From a virus (lineage: Duplodnaviria > Heunggongvirae > Uroviricota > Caudoviricetes), in IMG/VR virus record IMGVR_UViG_2690316142_000009: 7,622 nt of DNA. One strand, given 5' to 3'. The notes below the pieces were generated by a model, which was not told the DNA's origin, made no database searches, and worked only from the letters and a program-made list of their open reading frames with translations. The number at the start of each line of letters is the position of its first letter. The first letter of the stretch is position 1. The translations under genes and the position numbers were made by a program. Positions 1 through 7,622 of this stretch are shown here, in pieces.

Positions 1-34
1 AGGAAGGAGTGTCCGTTAAACTCAGGCTACCTCA
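1..34 (-). mobile_element. Terminal inverted repeat (orfA-proximal end) of a second IS3-family copy whose body lies upstream of the window
   Basis: Bases 1-34 (AGGAAGGAGTGTCCGTTAAACTCAGGCTACCTCA) are identical 34/34 to 5645-5678, the orfA-proximal end of the complete IS at 4425-5678. Identity stops at 35 (GGTTATTCGC versus AAAACACGAT at 5679). Same orientation as the complete copy. Confidence 0.6.
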
Positions 35-711
35 GGTTATTCGCTTCTGGGCATGGGCGGATCAACAAATGATAGACGGTAATGCAGATTGTAACGCTCG
101 CGGCGTTACAAAAAGTGCAATAGATCGCATCACTTTTATGTCTGGTTTTGCTGATGCGTTAATTCAGGTTGGATGGCTGGTCGAAAATGACGGAGGGCTT
201 TCTCTACCTAACTTTGAACGTCATAACGGAAAAAGCTCTAAAAAAAACGGGCGGTTACAAACGAGCGAGTAACAAAAATACGCGAACTGAAACGAAAAGG
301 TAACGCTGCCAGCGTTACACAAACGGATCAAAAAGCGTTACCAGAGGAAGAGGAAGAGGAAGATCTAAATACTGATCTCCCCCTCGCCAAAAACGAGCGT
401 CTAAAAAATTCGAGCCGGAGGCTATTGAGCTGCCCGATTGGTTGCCGGAAACACTCTGGCATGAGTGGGTCCGGTTCAGACAGGCATTGCGAAAACCGAT
501 TCGAACGGAGCAGGGCGCTAACGGGGCGATACGGGAACTGGAAAAATTCCGTCAGCAGGGTTTTACACCTGAGCAGGTGATTCGACACAGCATCGCCAAT
601 GAATACCAGGGCCTGTTCGCGCCGAAAGGTGTTCGGCCTGAGACGTTGCTCCGACAGGTTAACACCGTCTCGTTGCCGGACAGTGCGATCCCGCCAGGCT
701 TCAGGGGGTAA
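35..711 (+). pseudogene. Remnant of a phage replication-initiator / replisome-organizer gene, 5' end removed by the IS and reading frame broken twice
   Basis: Three consecutive protein-like open stretches in different frames: frame 0 (35-272, ...FWAWADQQMIDGNADCNARGV...), frame 2 (open 242-577, KIRELKRKGNAASVTQTDQKALPEEEEEED) and frame 1 (open 376-711, ...KKFEPEAIELPDWLPETLWHEWVRFRQALRKPIRTEQG...). No ATG/GTG with an SD begins the frame-1 segment. Lies directly upstream of the DnaC-like gene, as initiator genes do in lambdoid phages. Family identity not verified. Confidence 0.45.
344..361 (+). repeat. (GAGGAA)x3 hexanucleotide repeat, encoding an acidic EEEEEE run in frame 2
   Basis: Direct reading: gaggaagaggaagaggaa at 344-361. 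Confidence 0.5.
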
Positions 712-717
712 CGGACC

Positions 718-1464
718 ATGAAAAATATTGCGACAGGCGGCGTTCTGGAACGCATCCGCCGACTGACCCCGCCACATGTAACCGCCCCATTCAGAACGGT
801 AGCGGAGTGGCGCGAGTGGCAACTTGCTGAAGGCCAGAAACGTAGCGAGGAGATCAACCGCCTGAATCGCCAGTTGCGGGTGGAAAAAATTCTGAATCGC
901 TCAGGCATCCAGCCGTTGCACCGTAAATGCTCGTTTGCGAATTACCAGGTGCAGAACGACGGCCAGCGATACGCGTTAAGCCAGGCGAAATCCATCGCCG
1001 ATGAACTGATGACCGGGTGTACAAATTTTGCGTTCAGCGGAAAACCTGGTACCGGGAAGAATCACTTAGCGGCAGCTATCGGGAATCGCCTGCTGAAAGA
1101 CGGTCAGACAGTGATTGTGGTTACCGTGGCTGATGTTATGAGCGCCCTGCACGCCAGCTATGACGACGGGCAGTCAGGCGAAAAATTTTTGCGGGAGCTG
1201 TGCGAAGTGGATCTGCTGGTTCTTGATGAAATTGGCATTCAGCGCGAGACGAAAAACGAGCAGGTGGTGCTGCACCAGATTGTTGATCGCCGGACAGCGT
1301 CGATGCGCAGCGTGGGGATGCTGACAAACCTGAACTATGAGGTGATGAAAACATTGCTCGGCGAGCGGGTGATGGATCGCATGGTCATGAACGGCGGGCG
1401 CTGGGTGAATTTTAACTGGGAGAGCTGGCGTCCGAATGTTAGCCATTCGAGGGTTGTTAAGTAG
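718..1464 (+). CDS. DnaC-like AAA+ helicase loader (functional analogue of lambda P; compare Rac YdaV, also 248 aa)
   Basis: 248-aa ORF. Walker A-like FSGKPGTGKNHLAAAIG and Walker B-like LLVLDEIG in DnaC-like spacing. G-rich SD-like stretch (GGGGG) 9 nt upstream of the ATG. Positioned after the initiator remnant. Confidence 0.85.
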   Translation: MKNIATGGVLERIRRLTPPHVTAPFRTVAEWREWQLAEGQKRSEEINRLNRQLRVEKILNRSGIQPLHRKCSFANYQVQNDGQRYALSQAKSIADELMTGCTNFAFSGKPGTGKNHLAAAIGNRLLKDGQTVIVVTVADVMSALHASYDDGQSGEKFLRELCEVDLLVLDEIGIQRETKNEQVVLHQIVDRRTASMRSVGMLTNLNYEVMKTLLGERVMDRMVMNGGRWVNFNWESWRPNVSHSRVVK

Positions 1465-1478
1465 TTTCAGGAGGATTT

Positions 1479-1901
1479 ATGGCGAAACCTTTTACTCCCG
1501 AACAGCGGGAAGAACTGAAGACGCGAATTGTGGAACTCGTGCATCAGGACGGTCGGGTCACGATTCGGCAGTTGTCAGATGAAACAGGTATCAGTCGTGC
1601 GTCTGTCGGTCGCTTATGCATAGAACTGGTCGCAAGTGGTGATGTATATAATTCTGGCTACGGCTTATTCCCGTCTGAACAGGCTCGCAAGGACTGGCAA
1701 AGCGCCCGCAAAAAACTCTCGAGAGTAAAGGTGAGGAAACCGGTTGTTGTTGATCCGGACCTTATCTGGTCATTACCTGACGGAGAAATACGCCGCTACG
1801 ACAGGCGCCTGAATATAATCTGTCGCGAGTGCCGGAAGAGCGAAGCTATGCAGCGTGTACTGGCTTTCTATCAGGGTAATTTTCAGGAGGCGATACTGTG
1901 A
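1479..1901 (+). CDS. Hypothetical protein with N-terminal winged-HTH-like segment (140 aa)
   Basis: GGAGG SD 5-6 nt upstream of ATG 1479. HTH-like stretch VTIRQLSDETGISRASVGRLCIELVASGDV. Starts 15 nt after the DnaC-like gene and is immediately followed by the next gene. Function not recognised. Confidence 0.6.
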   Translation: MAKPFTPEQREELKTRIVELVHQDGRVTIRQLSDETGISRASVGRLCIELVASGDVYNSGYGLFPSEQARKDWQSARKKLSRVKVRKPVVVDPDLIWSLPDGEIRRYDRRLNIICRECRKSEAMQRVLAFYQGNFQEAIL

Positions 1902-1958
1902 ATGAAATTAGCTATCAGGCTTCAATTACCGCTGGCATTCGCATCAAAGGAGAGGAGC

Positions 1959-2315
1959 ATGGAAATAAAACCAGAAGATGAGTTAAGCAATATCGTTTTA
2001 TTTCCGGTAAAAGAGGATGACCCTCGTAATCAGGTTAATTTTCTTTATGAGCCATCGGAAAGACCATATTGCCATCACGCCTCTGTACGGGTTGACGAAA
2101 AAGAGCGTCAGGTCCGCTGTAAAATCTGCGGTGCGGTTGTGGAGCCGTTTGACTGGATGCTCTCTGTGGCAAAAAGAGAAACCAGACTGGCAGATGATGT
2201 AAGGCTATTGCGCCAGGAGGAACAGGAAAGGCGGAGAAATATAGAAAAGCTGATACAGATTGAGCGTAACGCGAAAGCGCGGATACGCAGGGCGACAAAA
2301 TCCAGAACTGAATAA
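1959..2315 (+). CDS. Hypothetical Zn-ribbon-like (C-H-H...C-x2-C) protein with basic, coiled-coil-like C-terminus (118 aa from ATG 1959)
   Basis: The ORF track starts at ATG 1902, which directly follows the upstream stop (TGAATG). The in-frame ATG at 1959 has a much stronger SD (AAGGAGAGGAG ending 4 nt upstream), so 1959 is preferred. Cys/His cluster YCHH...RCKICG, then an Arg/Glu/Lys-rich tail. Confidence 0.55.
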   Translation: MEIKPEDELSNIVLFPVKEDDPRNQVNFLYEPSERPYCHHASVRVDEKERQVRCKICGAVVEPFDWMLSVAKRETRLADDVRLLRQEEQERRRNIEKLIQIERNAKARIRRATKSRTE

Positions 2316-2462
2316 TTAAATTTAGCACTGTTAAAAATTTAATCCTTAACCGGAGGGATTTCTGCACCCTCAAATCATCAGGAGACCACCCGAAAGGGCG
2401 GGGAGCAGTCACACATCTGTTTCCGATAGCCCCGTTCTAATGCTACACTCTTTGATATTTTT

Positions 2463-3149
2463 ATGACCCCAATAAACATATTTATGACAGTTGCTGATTT
2501 CAAACGGCCCAAATTGGAGCTCCCAAACGGGGCAAACAAACTACTACTGCACTCTTGCTGTGCTCCATGTTCCGGTGAGGTGATGGAGGCGCTTCAGGCC
2601 TCGGGAATCGACTACACCATCTTTTTCTACAACCCGAACATTCATCCTCAGAAAGAGTATTTAATTCGTAAGGATGAGAATATTCGCTTTGCTGAACAAC
2701 ACGGCGTGCCGTTTATTGATGCTGATTACGACACAGACAACTGGTTTGAACGAGCCAAAGGAATGGAATGGGAGCCCGAACGAGGGATCCGTTGCACCAT
2801 GTGTTTTGACATGCGTTTTGAGCGGACAGCGCTGTACGCCGCTGAAAATGGTTTCAGTGTGATCAGCAGTTCACTGGGCATTTCACGCTGGAAAAATATG
2901 CAGCAGGTTAACGACTGTGGGCGGCGAGCCGTCGCGCATTATCCGGGCATGGTGTACTGGGATTATAACTGGCGCAAGCAGGGCGGCTCGTCCCGTATGA
3001 TTGAAATCAGCAAGCGCGAAAAATTCTATCAGCAGGAATATTGTGGCTGTGTGTATTCTCTGCGCGATACCAATCTACACCGCAAATCTCAGGGACGCCC
3101 TCTTATCAAAATTGGTCAACTCCACTACGGTAAAGAAGAGAAGGAGTGA
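2463..3149 (+). CDS. queH: QueH-like (DUF208) Fe-S protein, putative epoxyqueuosine reductase
   Basis: 228-aa ORF with Cys motifs [24 protein letters not shown] and YCGCVY, which I recall as characteristic of the DUF208/QueH family. No HMM run. Start uncertain: neither ATG 2463 nor in-frame ATG 2485 has an SD. Confidence 0.55.
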
Positions 3150-3204
3150 TTTTATGGGGCACCTTTCTGATTGATTTCATATTGGCGAGGTAAGTAGAAT
3201 GACT

Positions 3205-3218
3205 GCGGGTGCTTGAGG
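3205..3218 (+). promoter_or_regulatory. hok mRNA 5' fold-back-inhibition (fbi) element
   Basis: GCGGGTGCTTGAGG at 3205-3218 is the reverse complement of CCTCAACGCACCCGC at 3590-3604, apart from a 1-nt bulge. This 5'/3' long-range pairing is the known hallmark of hok-family mRNAs. Confidence 0.5.
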
Positions 3219-3261
3219 CTATCTGCTTCAGGCATGAACACCAAAAGGCAGATAGAGAAAA

Positions 3262-3328
3262 GCCCCAGTTAACATTACGCGTCCGGCAAGACGCTTAACA
3301 TTAATCTGAGGCCAATTTCATGCTTTGC
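3262..3328 (-). ncRNA. sok: Sok-like antisense RNA (approximate extent), antisense to the hok leader
   Basis: Minus-strand sigma70-like promoter: -35 TTGCCT (reverse complement of 3358-3363), 17-bp spacer, -10 TAACCT (reverse complement of 3335-3340). Transcription would start near 3328 and run antisense across the upstream ATG/leader region, as expected for Sok. 3' end not defined; no clean terminator found. Confidence 0.3.
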
Positions 3329-3376
3329 ACATGTAGGTTAGCCTCTTACATGCCGAAAGGCAAGGAGAAGCAGGCT

Positions 3377-3532
3377 ATGAAGCAGCAAAAGGCGATGTTA
3401 ATCGCCCTGATCGTCATCTGTTTAACCGTCATAGTGACGGCACTGGTAACGAGGAAAGACCTCTGTGAGGTACGAATCCGAACCGGCCAGACGGAGGTCG
3501 CTGTCTTCGTAGACTACGAATCCAGGAAGTAA
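3377..3532 (+). CDS. hok: Hok/Gef-family type I toxin (51 aa, membrane peptide)
   Basis: MKQQKAMLIALIVICLTVIVTALVTRKDLCEVRIRTGQTEVAVF... is a near-match to the Hok/Gef family as I recall it, closest to HokD/RelF. AAGGAG SD 10 nt upstream of ATG 3377. The 70-aa ORF-track entry (3320-3532) is the same frame extended to an upstream ATG. Confidence 0.9.
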   Translation: MKQQKAMLIALIVICLTVIVTALVTRKDLCEVRIRTGQTEVAVFVDYESRK

Positions 3533-3589
3533 GAGTGACCGGGCGGGGAGCTGATCCCATCCCCGCCCACCTCTGATGTGTCAGGCATC

Positions 3590-3604
3590 CTCAACGCACC
3601 CGCA
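3590..3604 (+). promoter_or_regulatory. hok mRNA 3' fbi partner element
   Basis: Complementary to 3205-3218 (see that feature). A perfect 9-bp GC-rich hairpin (GGGCGGGGA at 3541-3549 pairing with TCCCCGCCC at 3560-3568) lies just upstream of it in the 3' UTR. Confidence 0.5.
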
Positions 3605-3610
3605 CTTAAC

Positions 3611-3659
3611 CCGCCCATCGCTGTGATCTCTCAGCGTTTCGGCGGGTTTTTTGTTGTTT
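3611..3659 (+). terminator. Intrinsic terminator at the 3' end of the hok transcript
   Basis: Composite helix: CCGCC 3611-3615 pairs with GGCGG 3641-3645, and CGCTG 3619-3623 pairs with CAGCG 3632-3636. Followed by T-rich tract TTTTTTGTTGTTT (3647-3659). Confidence 0.6.
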
Positions 3660-3672
3660 ATTTCCGGTGAAT

Positions 3673-3700
3673 TTGATTCGCGCACCTTCGCAGATAGAAT
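3673..3700 (+). promoter_or_regulatory. Candidate sigma70 promoter for the 95-aa ORF
   Basis: -35 TTGATT (3673-3678), 16-bp spacer, -10 TAGAAT (3695-3700), about 80 nt upstream of ATG 3782. Sequence match only. Confidence 0.35.
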
Positions 3701-3781
3701 CGACTCACTTAAGTAGCGCGCAGGGAGAAGAGGGATGGACCCCGAACAGGGGAGAGCTATTTATCTGGAAGGATTCTGAAG

Positions 3782-4069
3782 ATGAAAATCGAAGAATTGC
3801 GTGAAATTTTTAGTGAAAATGGCCTCTATGCTGTGCGCGTTGAGAATGGAGCGATTGTCAGCCATTGCCGCATTAGATGTTTGCAATCTCAACAAAGGAA
3901 GAGCGGTGCTGTGTTATTTTATTTTTGTAATGGACTTCTGACGGACGGTTTTATTTTGCGTGAGGACGAATTTGTCACATCATTACGGGTTTTGAAAGAG
4001 ATTGGTTTTAAGGCTGGTTTTCTGCTTTTGCTGAAGAATAAACTCATCTACAATCTTGAGCAGGATTGA
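3782..4069 (+). CDS. Hypothetical small protein (95 aa), AT-rich moron-like gene upstream of DUF1367 copy 1
   Basis: ATG 3782 with AAGGA about 8 nt upstream. Visibly more AT-rich than its neighbours. Weak N-terminal similarity to the 70-aa ORF at 5773-5985 (EELREIFSENGLYAVRVENGAIV versus KKLFSSKYAVIRRDDLSVIV). Occupies the same position relative to hok as rem does next to hokD in the Qin prophage; identity not verified. Confidence 0.5.
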   Translation: MKIEELREIFSENGLYAVRVENGAIVSHCRIRCLQSQQRKSGAVLFYFCNGLLTDGFILREDEFVTSLRVLKEIGFKAGFLLLLKNKLIYNLEQD

Positions 4070-4107
4070 ACTCCTGCTGTGTAACACCGTGCCACCGGAG
4101 AAAGCCG

Positions 4108-4424
4108 ATGGCACATATACAACTGGTCAAACAAACCTCTTCCGGATTACTTCTCCCGGCGACGCCGGAGAGTTGCGATTTTCTGCATCAAATCAAAACA
4201 GGTGAGTGGATACACGCAGACTTTAAGCGTGTGCGTAACTACGCATTCCACAAGCGTTTTTTCAAACTCCTGCAACTGGGATTCGATTACTGGACTCCGG
4301 TCGGTGGGGCGATCACGCCTCGCGAACGAAAACTGGTGTCCGGTTTCGTTGATTACCTGTGTGAATCAGTAGGCCGGGAACATACGCCAGCTCTGAGCGA
4401 AGCCGCAGAGCAATTGAGGTGTAC
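4108..4424 (+). pseudogene. DUF1367-like nin-region gene, copy 1, truncated after about codon 105 by the IS
   Basis: 4106-4424 is about 97% identical to 6055-6363 (the intact copy at 6057-6656). Identity ends exactly at the IS end (4425, TGAGGT...). The ORF then runs into IS sequence (LRCTGNSGHYHLFFF) to a stop at 4461. GGAG SD upstream of ATG 4108. Confidence 0.7.
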
Positions 4425-4457
4425 TGGCAATAGCGGACACTACCATTTGTTCTTTTT

Positions 4458-5276
4458 TTAAGCAGCCATCTGATGATATTTTTCCCTGAAGGCTGCCGGG
4501 GAGATATTCCCCAGACGAGAGTGACGACGCTGACGATTGTAGAAAATCTCAATGTATTCCCGTATTACTGAGATGGCTTCATCCCGGTTATTAAAACGAT
4601 AGTGGCTCAGGCTCTCATTTTTCAGCGTTCCCCAGAAGCTTTCCATCGGAGCGTTGTCGTAACAGTTACCTTTACGCGACATTGATGTTTTCAGACCAGA
4701 CTGCTCCTGTATGACCCGGTAATCGTATGCGCAGTACTGTGAACCTCGATCAGAGTGGTGGATTAGCCCGGCAGGTGGGCGCTGGCTCCTGAGCGCCATA
4801 AACAGGGCTTTACCTGTCAGCTCTTTTGTCATGCGCTCTCCCATGGCGTAGCCGACAATTTCGCACGTATAAACATCTTTGATGCCAGCGAGGTACAACC
4901 ATCCCTCCTGTGTGGCAACATACGTCAGGTCCGCCACCCAGACCTGATTTGGTGCTGTAGGAGCGAACGTCTGGTTCAGCAGATTTGGCGCAACTGGCAG
5001 ATTGTGGTTCGAGTTCGTAGTCGCTCTGAACTTGCGTTTCTGCTTACAGCGTAGCCTTAGCTCCTTACGAAGACGTGCCAGTCGGTCACGACCAACGATG
5101 ATGCCATTCTCTGCCAGCTCCGTCTGGAGCCGCCGGGTTCCATATGTTTCGCGAGTGCGGATATGTGCCACCTTAATCTCCAGTTTTAGCCGCTCATCAC
5201 TTTGTTTTCTGTCTGAGGGTTCATGCTGTACCCAGTTGTAATAACCGCTCCTGGATACACCAAATACCTGACACAT
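4458..5276 (-). CDS. IS3-family transposase OrfB (DDE catalytic domain), expected to be made as an OrfAB fusion
   Basis: 272-aa ORF. Its frame stays open upstream through the slippery site, and is -1 relative to orfA (manual translation: ...ILKK then SNSVFCTGVAEKYALIEQWRQQFPIEAMCQVFGV..., no stops). Confidence 0.85.
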   Translation of the reverse strand: MCQVFGVSRSGYYNWVQHEPSDRKQSDERLKLEIKVAHIRTRETYGTRRLQTELAENGIIVGRDRLARLRKELRLRCKQKRKFRATTNSNHNLPVAPNLLNQTFAPTAPNQVWVADLTYVATQEGWLYLAGIKDVYTCEIVGYAMGERMTKELTGKALFMALRSQRPPAGLIHHSDRGSQYCAYDYRVIQEQSGLKTSMSRKGNCYDNAPMESFWGTLKNESLSHYRFNNRDEAISVIREYIEIFYNRQRRHSRLGNISPAAFREKYHQMAA

Positions 5277-5311
5277 CGCTTCAATGGGAAATTGTTGTCG
5301 CCATTGTTCGA

Positions 5312-5614
5312 TTAACGCGTATTTTTCAGCGACTCCTGTGCAAAATACGCTGTTGCTTTTTTTAATATATCTCGCTCAAGGCGAGCTTCATTTAACGCCT
5401 TACGCAGTTGCAGAATTTCAGATTCCAGTTCAGCCACCGTGCGGGAACCAGGAGTACCGAGCCCTTTTCTGGCGGCGGTAACCCATTGTCCTAAAGTGCC
5501 TTCAGGAAGAGATAATCGGGAAGCGCCTTCACTGATCGAAAGTTGATTTTCAAGAACCGTTCTGACAGCTTCGGCTTTGAACTCTTTAGAGTAACGTTGG
5601 GTTTTTCTGCTCAT
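5312..5614 (-). CDS. IS3-family transposase OrfA (HTH DNA-binding / leucine-zipper component)
   Basis: 100-aa ORF starting about 30 nt inside the IS end. Heptad-like LxxxxxxL region (ELESEILQLRKALNEARLERDILKKA). Ends 15 codons after the slippery site. Confidence 0.85.
   Translation of the reverse strand: MSRKTQRYSKEFKAEAVRTVLENQLSISEGASRLSLPEGTLGQWVTAARKGLGTPGSRTVAELESEILQLRKALNEARLERDILKKATAYFAQESLKNTR
5357..5363 (-). other. Programmed -1 ribosomal frameshift slippery heptamer (A_AAA_AAA then G) joining orfA to orfB
   Basis: Minus strand reads TTA AAA AAA GCA in the orfA frame. The -1 frame from this point is open into orfB. Classic IS3-family arrangement. Confidence 0.6.
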
Positions 5615-5772
5615 TATTAGCTCCTTCTGATGCCATTCTATTTCAGGAAGGAGTGTCCGTTAAACTCAGGCTACCTCAAAAACACGATCATACACTAAAT
5701 CAGTAAGTTGGCAGCATCACCTTTTGTCTCTATGTTGATATAACCGTTTGTACTTATAAACCTGGAGGCATC

Positions 5773-5985
5773 GTGGAAAAAATAAAGAAACTATTTAGTA
5801 GTAAATACGCAGTCATACGTCGTGATGACCTGTCAGTTATAGTCGAAATGGATTACTTCCCTGAAACCAAAAAATCAATGATGTATCGTAATGGTCGAAA
5901 GGCAATTTTTTTACCGATGAGGGTAAGTGACATTATGGGAAATGATAAACTGCTGGATGAATTGCGAGTCAGAGCATCCTGTTAG
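5773..5985 (+). CDS. Hypothetical small protein (70 aa, GTG start), AT-rich, upstream of DUF1367 copy 2
   Basis: GGAGG (5764-5768) 4 nt upstream of GTG 5773. Begins about 95 nt after the IS end. Weak similarity to the 95-aa ORF at 3782. Function not recognised. Confidence 0.45.
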   Translation: MEKIKKLFSSKYAVIRRDDLSVIVEMDYFPETKKSMMYRNGRKAIFLPMRVSDIMGNDKLLDELRVRASC

Positions 5986-6056
5986 TATTGGCATTAATTC
6001 TGGTATACTACATAACGGGCTGAACACCCATTCTACTGCGCCAGCGGAGAACTACG

Positions 6057-6656
6057 ATGGCGCATATACAACTGATCAAACAAACCTCTTCCGGATTACT
6101 TCTCCCGGCGACGCCGGAGAGTTGCGATTTTCTGCATCAAATCAAAACAGGTGAGTGGATACACGCAGACTTTAAGCGTGTGCGTAACTACGCATTCCAC
6201 AAGCGTTTTTTCAAACTCCTGCAACTGGGATTCGATTACTGGACTCCGGTCGGTGGGGCGATCACGCCTCGCGAACGAGAACTGCTGTCTGGTTTCGTTG
6301 ATTACCTGTGCGAATCAGTAGGTCGGGAACATACGCCAGCTCTGAGCGAAGCCGCAGAGCAATATCTGAATACAGTTGCGACACGCAGAACCCGGGATAC
6401 GGCATTGCTAAAGTCGTTTGAGGCTTTTCGCGAGTGGGTAACCATTCAGGCTGGATTTTACACCGAACATTTTTATCCGGACGGTAGCCGCGGGCGTCGG
6501 GCAAAATCCATCGCTTTTGCGAATATGGACGAAACCGAGTTTCAGCAGGTTTATAAATCTGTTCTGAATGTGCTGTGGAACTGGATTCTGTTCCGTAAAT
6601 TTTCCTCTCCGGAACAAGTCGAAAATGTGGCCGCGCAGCTGCTGGAGTTTGCGTAA
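6057..6656 (+). CDS. DUF1367-like nin-region protein (199 aa), intact copy
   Basis: GGAGA SD 7 nt upstream of the ATG. Stop overlaps the next start (TAATG). N-terminal 105 codons duplicated at 4108-4424. Family label from memory of nin-region proteins (YbcN-like), not verified. Confidence 0.7.
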   Translation: MAHIQLIKQTSSGLLLPATPESCDFLHQIKTGEWIHADFKRVRNYAFHKRFFKLLQLGFDYWTPVGGAITPRERELLSGFVDYLCESVGREHTPALSEAAEQYLNTVATRRTRDTALLKSFEAFREWVTIQAGFYTEHFYPDGSRGRRAKSIAFANMDETEFQQVYKSVLNVLWNWILFRKFSSPEQVENVAAQLLEFA

Positions 6657-6946
6657 TGGTGGATTTACGTAAAGCGGCGCGGGGGCAGATGTGCACCGTC
6701 AGAATTCCTGGCTACTGCAATCACGATCCGGAAACGTCTGTGCTGGCGCATTACCGACTGGCGGGAACGTGCGGAACAGCGATAAAGCCACACGATATGC
6801 AGGCAGCGATTGCCTGTAGCTCGTGCCACGATTTAATCGACGGGCGGGTAAAAACCAGCGATTACACCAAAGAAGAATTACGCCTGATGCATGCAGAAGG
6901 TGTTTTTCGCACACAAGAAATCTGGAGAAAGGAGGGATATTTATGA
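6656..6946 (+). CDS. DUF1364 / YbcO-like Cys-rich nin-region protein (96 aa), putative metal-binding nuclease-like protein
   Basis: 96 aa with Cys clusters (CTVRIPGYC, CSSCHDLIDG). Same length and position as YbcO in DLP12-type nin regions. Translationally coupled on both sides (TAATG upstream, ATGA downstream). Confidence 0.6.
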   Translation: MVDLRKAARGQMCTVRIPGYCNHDPETSVLAHYRLAGTCGTAIKPHDMQAAIACSSCHDLIDGRVKTSDYTKEELRLMHAEGVFRTQEIWRKEGYL

Positions 6947-7497
6947 TTTACCCAACGAATACAGGAAAAAGCGGAGAACACCTTCGTCTCACCACGCTGG
7001 AAAGTGTCTGGATTCAGGGAAAACTACGTATGTGGGGGCGCTGGTCGTATATTGGTGGCGGTAAGACGGGGAATATGTTTAACCTGATGTTGACCTCTAA
7101 AAAGCTGACAAAAACGGCAATTAACGAGGCGCTCCGGAGGATGAAAAAAGCAGGTCTGAACAAGTCTGAACTTGAGGCTTTTTTGCGGGATATGATTAAC
7201 GGTAAGCAAAAGAGCTGGCTGGCGCATTGTACTGATGCAGAGGCGTTATGTATTGATCGGGTCATAAGTGAGGTGCTGGCAGAGCATCCAGGATTGATTA
7301 GCGTCCTTCGGCAACGGTATGAGGGGCGGGGGATGACCAAACGCAAAATGGCTGAACTGCTGAATGATGCACACCCGAAATGGAGTTTAAGAACCTGTGA
7401 AAGACGCATTGAGCATTGGCTAAAGGTGGCAGAATTTATTTTGTACAAACCAATGGTTATGGCTTTTGGTATAGAGAAAAAAGTTATTGCTTTTTGA
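6943..7497 (+). CDS. Putative late-gene antiterminator Q-like protein (184 aa from ATG 6943)
   Basis: Strong SD AAGGAGGG 6 nt upstream of ATG 6943, which overlaps the upstream stop. Last gene before a promoter-like TTGACG and a strong intrinsic terminator, the canonical Q / pR' / tR' arrangement. Assignment rests mainly on position; the ORF-track entry 6823-7497 is an upstream extension overlapping the previous gene. Confidence 0.5.
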   Translation: MIYPTNTGKSGEHLRLTTLESVWIQGKLRMWGRWSYIGGGKTGNMFNLMLTSKKLTKTAINEALRRMKKAGLNKSELEAFLRDMINGKQKSWLAHCTDAEALCIDRVISEVLAEHPGLISVLRQRYEGRGMTKRKMAELLNDAHPKWSLRTCERRIEHWLKVAEFILYKPMVMAFGIEKKVIAF

Positions 7498-7574
7498 CGT
7501 AAAAACTGCTTCAATTCTTGTACGCTTCGCAAAGCTGTACCGCGAGGCGAATAGCAGACATGGACATTTGAAAG

Positions 7575-7599
7575 AGCCCGCTTTATGCGGGTTTTTTTA
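7575..7599 (+). terminator. Rho-independent terminator (candidate tR' of the late-operon leader)
   Basis: Stem AGCCCGC (7575-7581), loop TTTAT, stem GCGGGTT (7587-7593), then a T7 run (7592-7598). About 80 nt downstream of the Q-like stop. Confidence 0.65.
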
Positions 7600-7622
7600 T
7601 ACCTGAAAAACGGCACAGGACG

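Follow-up and report, generated by a model that had tools for sequence, protein, structure and literature searches.

A rem homolog with a conserved putative promoter and leader in a lambdoid prophage fragment bracketed by IS600-type elements

The window analyzed here is a 7,622-nucleotide (nt) stretch of the virus record IMGVR_UViG_2690316142_000009. It represents the early-right part of a lambdoid prophage of the Rac/Qin type, interrupted by insertion sequences (ISs). Downstream of its replication genes lie a hok/sok locus, the terminator of the hok transcript, and a 95-amino-acid (aa) open reading frame (ORF) that is the subject of this report and that we identify as rem, the gene for an antirepressor known from the Qin prophage of Escherichia coli K-12. 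A first-pass annotation, made from the sequence alone, had described an AT-rich ORF in the position that rem holds next to hokD but could not assign its sequence. The placement was correct but understated, because the ORF is itself a rem homolog. BLASTP aligned it with K-12 Qin Rem (b1561) at 68% identity over 80 aa (E = 2e-34), the phrog_340 profile matched it (E = 6e-20), and the family PF27490 (PF27490.1) is precomputed for an identical protein, P0001, and for all 77 database homologs. Local scans of the ORF with Pfam and NCBIfam returned no match; PF27490 is newer than the local copy of Pfam. The ORF begins with ATG behind the Shine-Dalgarno (SD) sequence GGAAGGA, is identical in product to WP_000687440.1, and is indeed AT rich, with a GC content of 39.6% compared to 48.8% for the window, the second lowest among the window's genes. 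Its product is also 79 to 80% identical to 86-aa "hypothetical proteins" encoded after hokD in other E. coli prophages. In phage records a homolog already bears the name rem, and in MN652886.1, which shares the window's gene order, it is called "prophage antirepressor." The order shared by these records is dicA-dicC-ydaT-ydaU-ydaV-...-hok-rem-DUF1367-ybcO-Q.

The ORF is conserved as coding sequence in related prophages. Its reading frame stays open in each of the 54 unique segments that are homologous, and it is under purifying selection (pooled ratio of nonsynonymous to synonymous polymorphism [pN/pS], 0.39; median ratio of the corresponding substitution rates [dN/dS], 0.26). The family is narrow, comprising 57 clusters among 1.84 billion representative proteins, and its named homologs all come from Escherichia or Shigella. 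A scan of species-representative genomes yielded only 3 rem loci, and the family therefore appears to be limited to these two genera. In an alignment of close and distant relatives (alignment A6), proteins of 56 to 99 aa share just a C-terminal core, G-x-L-(I/L)-Y...GF-x-LR-x-(D/E)EFVTSL...AG, whose residues L45, Y47, G56, F57, L59, E63-F64-V65-T66-S67, A78, and G79 are all kept in the window protein. Compared to the 56- to 73-aa proteins that have this core, Rem has an N-terminal segment about 35 aa longer. An AlphaFold2 (AF2) model of Rem consists of one helix, a sheet of five strands, and two further helices, at moderate confidence (predicted local distance difference test [pLDDT] score, 67.6; predicted template modeling [pTM] score, 0.55). 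No significant structural neighbor of the model was found in BFVD or the PDB, and the PDB holds no sequence relative.

The downstream gene is DUF1367 or hyp92 plus DUF968 in all 76 of 76 loci. On the upstream side, hok lies within 500 nt of rem in 65 of 82 loci, and no hok is found upstream in the other 17. In the window, rem is 2.3 kb downstream of the DnaC-like gene. Positions 34 to 4414 are collinear with, and 99.4% identical to, an intact prophage of E. coli FDAARGOS_943 (L001), in which the gene order is repressor, Cro-like gene, YdaT, replication genes, QueH, hokD, rem ORF, DUF1367, DUF1364, and DUF1133.

The length of 95 aa stems from a 1-nt deletion. Where homologs carry a run of five T residues (T5), the window has four (T4; positions 4018 to 4021, plus strand), which shifts the frame after F80 and exchanges the last 6 residues for a 15-residue tail. 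The product is 95 aa in each of the 27 loci with T4 and 85 or 86 aa in the 47 with T5. The native acidic C terminus, SAF-x-x-E, is thus missing from the window protein. Its loss would be expected if the window held a decaying remnant, in which rem is present by descent, as a frameshifted allele with neither activity nor target, and persists as a neutral passenger. IS600-type elements on both sides of the fragment, the interruption of DUF1367, and the position of the immunity region outside the window are all in keeping with decay, and the family includes other truncated or fused relics (P0030, P0043, P0078, and P0084). However, every invariant core residue is retained, since the change begins past the last of them, and the new tail is predicted to be disordered (residues 87 to 95 have pLDDT scores below 50). 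The 95-aa allele is found on about 1,000 contigs, mostly of Shigella sonnei and Shigella flexneri, without further lesions, and intact prophages whose DicA-type immunity region is complete (L001, L014, L020, L025, and L033) carry it too. Moreover, a separate frameshift in a K-12-like lineage (P0044/P0045) has produced a similar tail, ...KNKLIYNL.... Neutral persistence of a dead allele is unlikely on this evidence, and the comparison suggests that the 95-aa allele is probably functional.

The first-pass annotation had also proposed that the gene is expressed from its own near-consensus promoter, TTGATT-16-TAGAAT, the best sigma70 match in the window, just downstream of the hok terminator. We refer to this putative promoter as P_rem. 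Its coordinates, 3673 to 3700, are correct, and it begins 12 nt past the U-tract of the terminator. The terminator itself is strong: its hairpin (3608 to 3648) has a predicted free energy of -24.7 kcal/mol (z = -5.4), and none of 200 shuffled sequences was as stable. Its loop (3616 to 3640) contains an insertion of about 23 nt, folded as a nested hairpin, relative to the K-12-type tetraloop CCCGC-TTCG-GCGGG. The quality of the promoter match, in contrast, had been overstated. P_rem matches the consensus at 9 of 12 positions and is tied with five other sites in the window, including the hok promoter; 6 sites reach this level in the window, compared to 7.5 ± 2.5 in shuffled sequence. The probable hok promoter (3171 to 3200) has the same hexamers, TTGATT and TAGAAT, at a spacing of 18 bp.

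What argues for P_rem is its behavior across prophages. We aligned the promoter and leader regions of 53 unique loci and computed the mean per-column diversity of each segment. TAGAAT has a diversity of 0.000 and is invariant in 53 of the 54 unique segments; the exception, L010, has a rearrangement junction within the leader. The -35 hexamer has a diversity of 0.16 and takes the forms TTGATT, TTGAAG, TTGCTT, TTGATA, TTGAGG, and TTGAAC, but its TTG is invariant across 7 to 8 unrelated spacer classes and is held at 16 bp from the -10 hexamer, or at 18 bp in the K-12 type. The sequence around these islands varies freely, with a diversity of 0.57 in the spacer and 0.38 in the 9 nt past the -10 hexamer, and is essentially unrelated between classes. 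The hexamers are kept whether or not hok lies upstream. In L036 to L041, hok is replaced by tandem 8- to 9-nt repeats, (TATTTGTTG)n, about 40 to 110 nt upstream of the rem promoter. Because two invariant islands at the correct spacing sit in otherwise unrelated sequence, we accept P_rem as probably a real sigma70-type promoter; the comparison, and not the match quality, supports the proposal of an independent promoter.

Alternatively, rem might have no promoter of its own and be reached only by the delayed-early transcript from PR, which antitermination would carry past the hok terminator, with TTG and TAGAAT conserved for some other cause. The nin-like region of lambdoid phages is transcribed from PR, as in lambda, and rem occupies such a region, between the replication genes and Q. 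The chance-level frequency of 9/12 matches is compatible with this alternative, as is the outcome of a search for start sites: none was found at K-12 positions ~1,644,972 to 1,644,977 (minus strand), nor any match to the promoter sequence, in the Cappable-seq, ROSE, Adams 2021, S. flexneri M90T, and EDL933 supplements. Transcription from PR alone would nonetheless leave the zero-diversity island at TAGAAT and the fixed position of TTG in unrelated upstream modules, hok-less loci among them, to be accounted for, and the Gifsy antirepressor units likewise consist of a terminator followed by their own promoter (PMC3121763). The two modes of transcription are compatible, and read-through from PR could add positive feedback. 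Exclusive dependence on PR seems to us improbable.

Judging by the distance to the -10 hexamer, transcription from P_rem would start at about A3707 and produce a leader of about 75 nt, which is more conserved than the silent positions of the gene it precedes. Its diversity is 0.025 at positions 3710 to 3741 and 0.056 at 3757 to 3781, compared to 0.144 at rem third codon positions, and it contains the invariant stretch GCGCGCAGGGAGAAGAGGG. RNA structure was ruled out as the cause of this conservation, as the minimum free energy (MFE) of the leader is unexceptional (z = -0.6) and 0 of 21 pairs show compensatory changes; the hok/sok element is the only Rfam match. A predicted hairpin that pairs positions 3772 to 3777 with 3793 to 3798 encloses the rem start codon. 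The leader also contains a small upstream ORF with a strong SD sequence, an invariant start region, and a stop codon 2 nt ahead of the rem ATG. A conserved leader peptide was ruled out as well, because indels alter the frame of this ORF in several lineages: it stops after 3 codons in K-12, L073 has a -1 indel, and L074 and L075 have a +1 indel that joins the upstream ORF to Rem (P0049, 98 aa). The constraint may stem from translational coupling or from a site bound by a protein or small RNA, and among the candidates for the point at which rem is controlled, the invariant leader is the best. In K-12, the native ribosome-binding site was enough for Rem activity (PMC10448788).

Ragunathan et al. 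(2023, J Bacteriol, PMC10448788) identified Rem by iterated searches for which the antirepressors of Gifsy and Fels served as seeds. Ectopic expression from Ptet-rem raised dicBp-lacZ activity 165-fold and caused filamentation that required Qin, DicB, and DicF. The authors' conclusion was that K-12 Rem acts as an antirepressor on DicA; by their account, the condition that induces it is unknown (PMC10448788). That paper is the sole one that we found on rem expression. DicA belongs to a group of short repressors, of about 135 aa, that are non-cleavable and are inactivated by small antirepressors (Lemire, Figueroa-Bossi & Bossi 2011, PMC3121763). The antirepressor genes lie downstream of the replication genes and belong to a LexA-controlled unit that follows a terminator-like palindrome; the exception is FsoA of Fels-1, which the Fels-1 repressor controls (PMC3121763).

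Repressors of this kind accompany rem in nearly all prophages in which they could be sought. A flank of 7 kb or more upstream of rem is available for 50 loci; in 45 of these, a DicA-family repressor and a DicC-like partner lie 4.6 to 8.0 kb upstream, and one of the 45 is L001, whose repressor is of the R1 type (L001 4585-4992). The linked repressors, of about 135 aa, fall into four main types, R1 to R4, with 53 to 65% mutual identity, and two distant types. These types appear to be heteroimmune (L001 4585-4992, loci L012-L084). All are short and have a C-terminal LLxLFxxLPxSEQ...R segment. No covariation between Rem and the repressor type was observed. One and the same Rem variant can accompany any of the four main types, and Rem would therefore recognize a part that the repressors share. 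The C-terminal segment is, from its conservation, a candidate for this common surface. One family member, P0078 (127 aa), joins about 50 residues from the N terminus of DicC to Rem, and everything between dicC and rem must therefore have been deleted in some cryptic prophage.

Control of P_rem does not follow the modes described for other antirepressors. LexA control was ruled out, as no LexA core (CTG-N10-CAG) lies within 600 nt of P_rem or in any spacer class or the conserved leader. The operator repeats of DicA in K-12 (TGTTAGTCAT...) and the corresponding repeats of L001 (ACTTAGGTTT) are found between the repressors' own two promoters and are absent from P_rem, so control by the prophage's own repressor is unsupported. 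An operator specific to the immunity type, placed in the spacer, was also ruled out, because spacer classes A, B, C, and F each accompany several repressor types. Since LexA cores and operator repeats are absent and spacer class is independent of repressor type, neither known mode of antirepressor control applies to P_rem, and its input signal would differ from those of the Gifsy and Fels-1 antirepressors. P_rem must be weak or controlled, because in K-12 Rem supplied ectopically relieves repression of the prophage and is toxic through prophage genes (PMC10448788). Constitutive expression of rem in the lysogen is unlikely.

The unit appears to remain open at its downstream end. The gap between rem and the next gene is 38 nt; that gene is DUF1367, the next gene of rem's transcription unit in intact prophages, and the window is collinear with L001 in this region up to position 4414. 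In L001, terminator-like sites from rem to the Q-like gene are at chance level and none is convincing, and the genes overlap. Because no terminator follows, the P_rem transcript probably extends into Q and would then deliver the Q-like antiterminator along with Rem. In the window, the IS600-type element breaks the unit downstream of rem. Read-through into Q again argues that P_rem is weak or tightly controlled, and it argues against a self-contained moron. The suggestion that rem is moron-like, that is, an independently expressed cargo gene that aids the lysogen outside phage regulation, draws on its low GC content, its own promoter, the upstream terminator, and its variable neighbors on either side, but it is very improbable given that the upstream terminator belongs to hok and none closes the unit downstream, that K-12 Rem acts in the prophage induction circuit by targeting the prophage's own repressor, with toxicity that runs through prophage genes (PMC10448788), that rem is tightly linked to DicA-family repressors, and that it is retained in functional temperate phages such as mEp460_ev081.

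Taken together, these results make it likely that the ORF, identified as rem in a lambdoid prophage of the Rac/Qin type, encodes, as a Shigella-type allele driven by P_rem, an antirepressor of a short DicA-family repressor. The hok terminator would shield rem from incoming hok transcription, and P_rem would start a transcript consisting of the leader followed by rem. In intact prophages, DUF1367, YbcO, and the Q-like antiterminator gene would follow on this transcript. Rem would inactivate the prophage's non-cleavable repressor and thereby derepress the early promoters. In the window, the deletion in the T run leaves the conserved core of Rem intact, and the unit sits between two IS600 copies in a broken prophage. 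Going further, P_rem and the leader might form the input module of an SOS-independent induction pathway shared by the DicA-type prophages of E. coli and Shigella, in which a host factor, either a protein or a small RNA, gates Rem synthesis and a single promoter fires both repressor inactivation and the Q-driven late genes. We regard this extension as speculative and somewhat doubtful.

Several points weigh against the identification of a working antirepressor unit. The window allele lacks the conserved acidic end, and the protein whose antirepressor activity has been shown, by others, is the 68%-identical K-12 Rem. Direct binding of Rem to the repressor is a step that we infer, for K-12 as well. 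As a single sequence, the P_rem match occurs at chance frequency, and the argument for the promoter is comparative. The predicted fold, of moderate confidence and with no neighbors, lends no support to a mechanism. Finally, the immunity region and the cognate repressor are outside the window, because the fragment begins at an IS600 end within the replication region, and rem may therefore have no target nearby.

The features of the window are listed in Table 1. The rem-bearing fragment, 4.4 kb long, is bracketed by two IS600-type copies in the same orientation, of which the one downstream is 99.4% identical to an element of L001 named IS600 by the Prokaryotic Genome Annotation Pipeline (PGAP). 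The 5' part of DUF1367 is duplicated (4091 to 4414 and 6040 to 6363), its copies being 96.6% identical. Because this part occurs twice, the window appears to consist of two related prophage fragments joined at the IS. QueH, an epoxyqueuosine reductase and thus a tRNA-modification gene, stands in a cargo position between hok and the replication genes.

Table 1. Features of the window, with positions in nucleotides from its first letter
Feature	Position	Strand	Remarks
IS600-type element, terminal part	1-34		End of second copy
Replication gene remnant	442-711		
DnaC-like helicase loader	718-1464		
DUF977 gene	1479-1901		
phrog_1621 protein	1902-2315		
QueH	2463-3149		Pfam E = 1.9e-65
hok/sok locus	3207-3382 (sok); hok coding sequence to 3532		sok from Rfam
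Intrinsic terminator of hok transcript	3608-3660	+	Outer stem 3608-3615/3641-3648, nested inner hairpin, U-rich tract
-35 hexamer of putative P_rem, TTGATT	3673-3678	+	4/6 matches
P_rem spacer	3679-3694	+	16 bp, hypervariable among prophages
-10 hexamer, TAGAAT	3695-3700	+	
Predicted rem 5' leader	3707-3781	+	~75 nt; GTAGCGCGCAGGGAGAAGAGGGATGG...
Small upstream ORF	3735-3779	+	14 codons, MDPEQGRAIYLEGF then stop; SD GGGAG at 3723-3727
SD sequence of rem, GGAAGGA	3767-3773	+	Read from sequence; invariant in alignment
rem coding sequence	3782-4069	+	95 aa
Frameshifted C-terminal tail of Rem	4022-4066	+	LLLLKNKLIYNLEQD; replaces SAF(A/E)(E/D)E
DUF1367 (irsA/ninB-like) gene, 5' part	4108-4414	+	Cut by IS600; Pfam DUF1367 positions 1-102 of 198
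IS600-type (IS3 family) element	4415-5678	-	1,264 bp; NCBIfam transpos_IS3
Short unrelated stretch	5679-6039		Contains 70-aa phrog_1813 ORF (5773-5985)
DUF1367 second copy, YbcO, and DUF1133/Q-like gene	6040-7622		

Two observations concern the short stretch that follows the IS600-type element. Positions 5679 to 5720 (...CACTAAATCAGTAAGTTGGCAGCATCACC) resemble the terminal remnant of another IS, which we take to be IS1-like, and a nearly identical motif sits immediately upstream of the rem promoter of L087. The phrog_1813 ORF (E = 1.6e-32; GC content, 37.1%) is situated just ahead of the second DUF1367 copy, in a slot equivalent to that of rem. One protein, P0119, bridges the two families, matching Rem over its full length (34%, E = 7e-11) and the N terminus of the phrog_1813 ORF (38%, E = 2e-7). 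A profile-profile comparison gave an hhalign probability of 37% (E = 3.6e-4), which is suggestive at most. By these similarities, the phrog_1813 ORF may be a distant relative of Rem and hence a second antirepressor-like gene.

The rem gene, its role as an antirepressor (2023), and the rem labels on homologs in phage records were already known. What is new here is modest: strong comparative evidence for a dedicated promoter independent of LexA and of the prophage repressor, together with a leader strongly constrained, beyond what neutrality would predict. These findings address a question left by the 2023 paper, namely, the signal that induces Rem, and they provide a defined DNA and RNA target region, positions 3673 to 3781, for studying this induction. 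E. coli and Shigella commonly harbor DicA-type prophages, among them PPompW prophages found integrated with Stx2a-converting phages, and the trigger is therefore of some practical interest.

Compared to K-12 Qin Rem, the window protein is homologous throughout the functional core, and its gene lies in the same slot, between the hokD terminator and Q-proximal genes, in a prophage of the kind with a DicA/DicC-type immunity region. The promoter hexamers (TTGAAG-18-TAGAAT in K-12) correspond, and the leader is nearly identical. The two differ in length (83 aa in K-12, 95 aa in the window), as the window protein has a QSQQ loop insert, like most non-K-12 alleles, and the frameshifted tail where K-12 Rem ends in SAFSGE. 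They differ also in the P_rem spacer, which is 16 bp in the window and unrelated in sequence to that of K-12, in the small upstream ORF, which is complete in the window and reduced to 3 codons in K-12, and in the downstream neighbor, which is DUF1367 in the window and the DUF968 gene ydfU in K-12. FsoA of Fels-1, Tum of phage 186, and AntC of N15 are similar to Rem in being encoded apart from the repressor gene and in acting on the repressor protein. Their control is different: FsoA is under the Fels-1 repressor, whereas the prophage operator repeats are absent from P_rem, and Tum, a protein of about 146 aa with a DinI-like half, and AntC are LexA controlled (PMC3121763). A further parallel is with GfoA, GftA, and GfhA of the Salmonella prophages Gifsy-1, -2, and -3, to which Rem has a remote sequence relatedness reported through PSI-BLAST intermediates (PMC10448788). 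The Gifsy units are LexA controlled, whereas P_rem has no LexA box and the rem unit has no dinI homolog and no visible SOS wiring. Like Rem, however, the Gifsy antirepressors are small proteins that inactivate a non-cleavable CI-like repressor of about 135 aa, and they are encoded outside the immunity region, downstream of the replication genes, behind a terminator-like palindrome followed by their own promoter (PMC3121763). The association of one Rem variant with several heteroimmune repressors recalls, in addition, the cross-reactivity of GfoA and GfhA.

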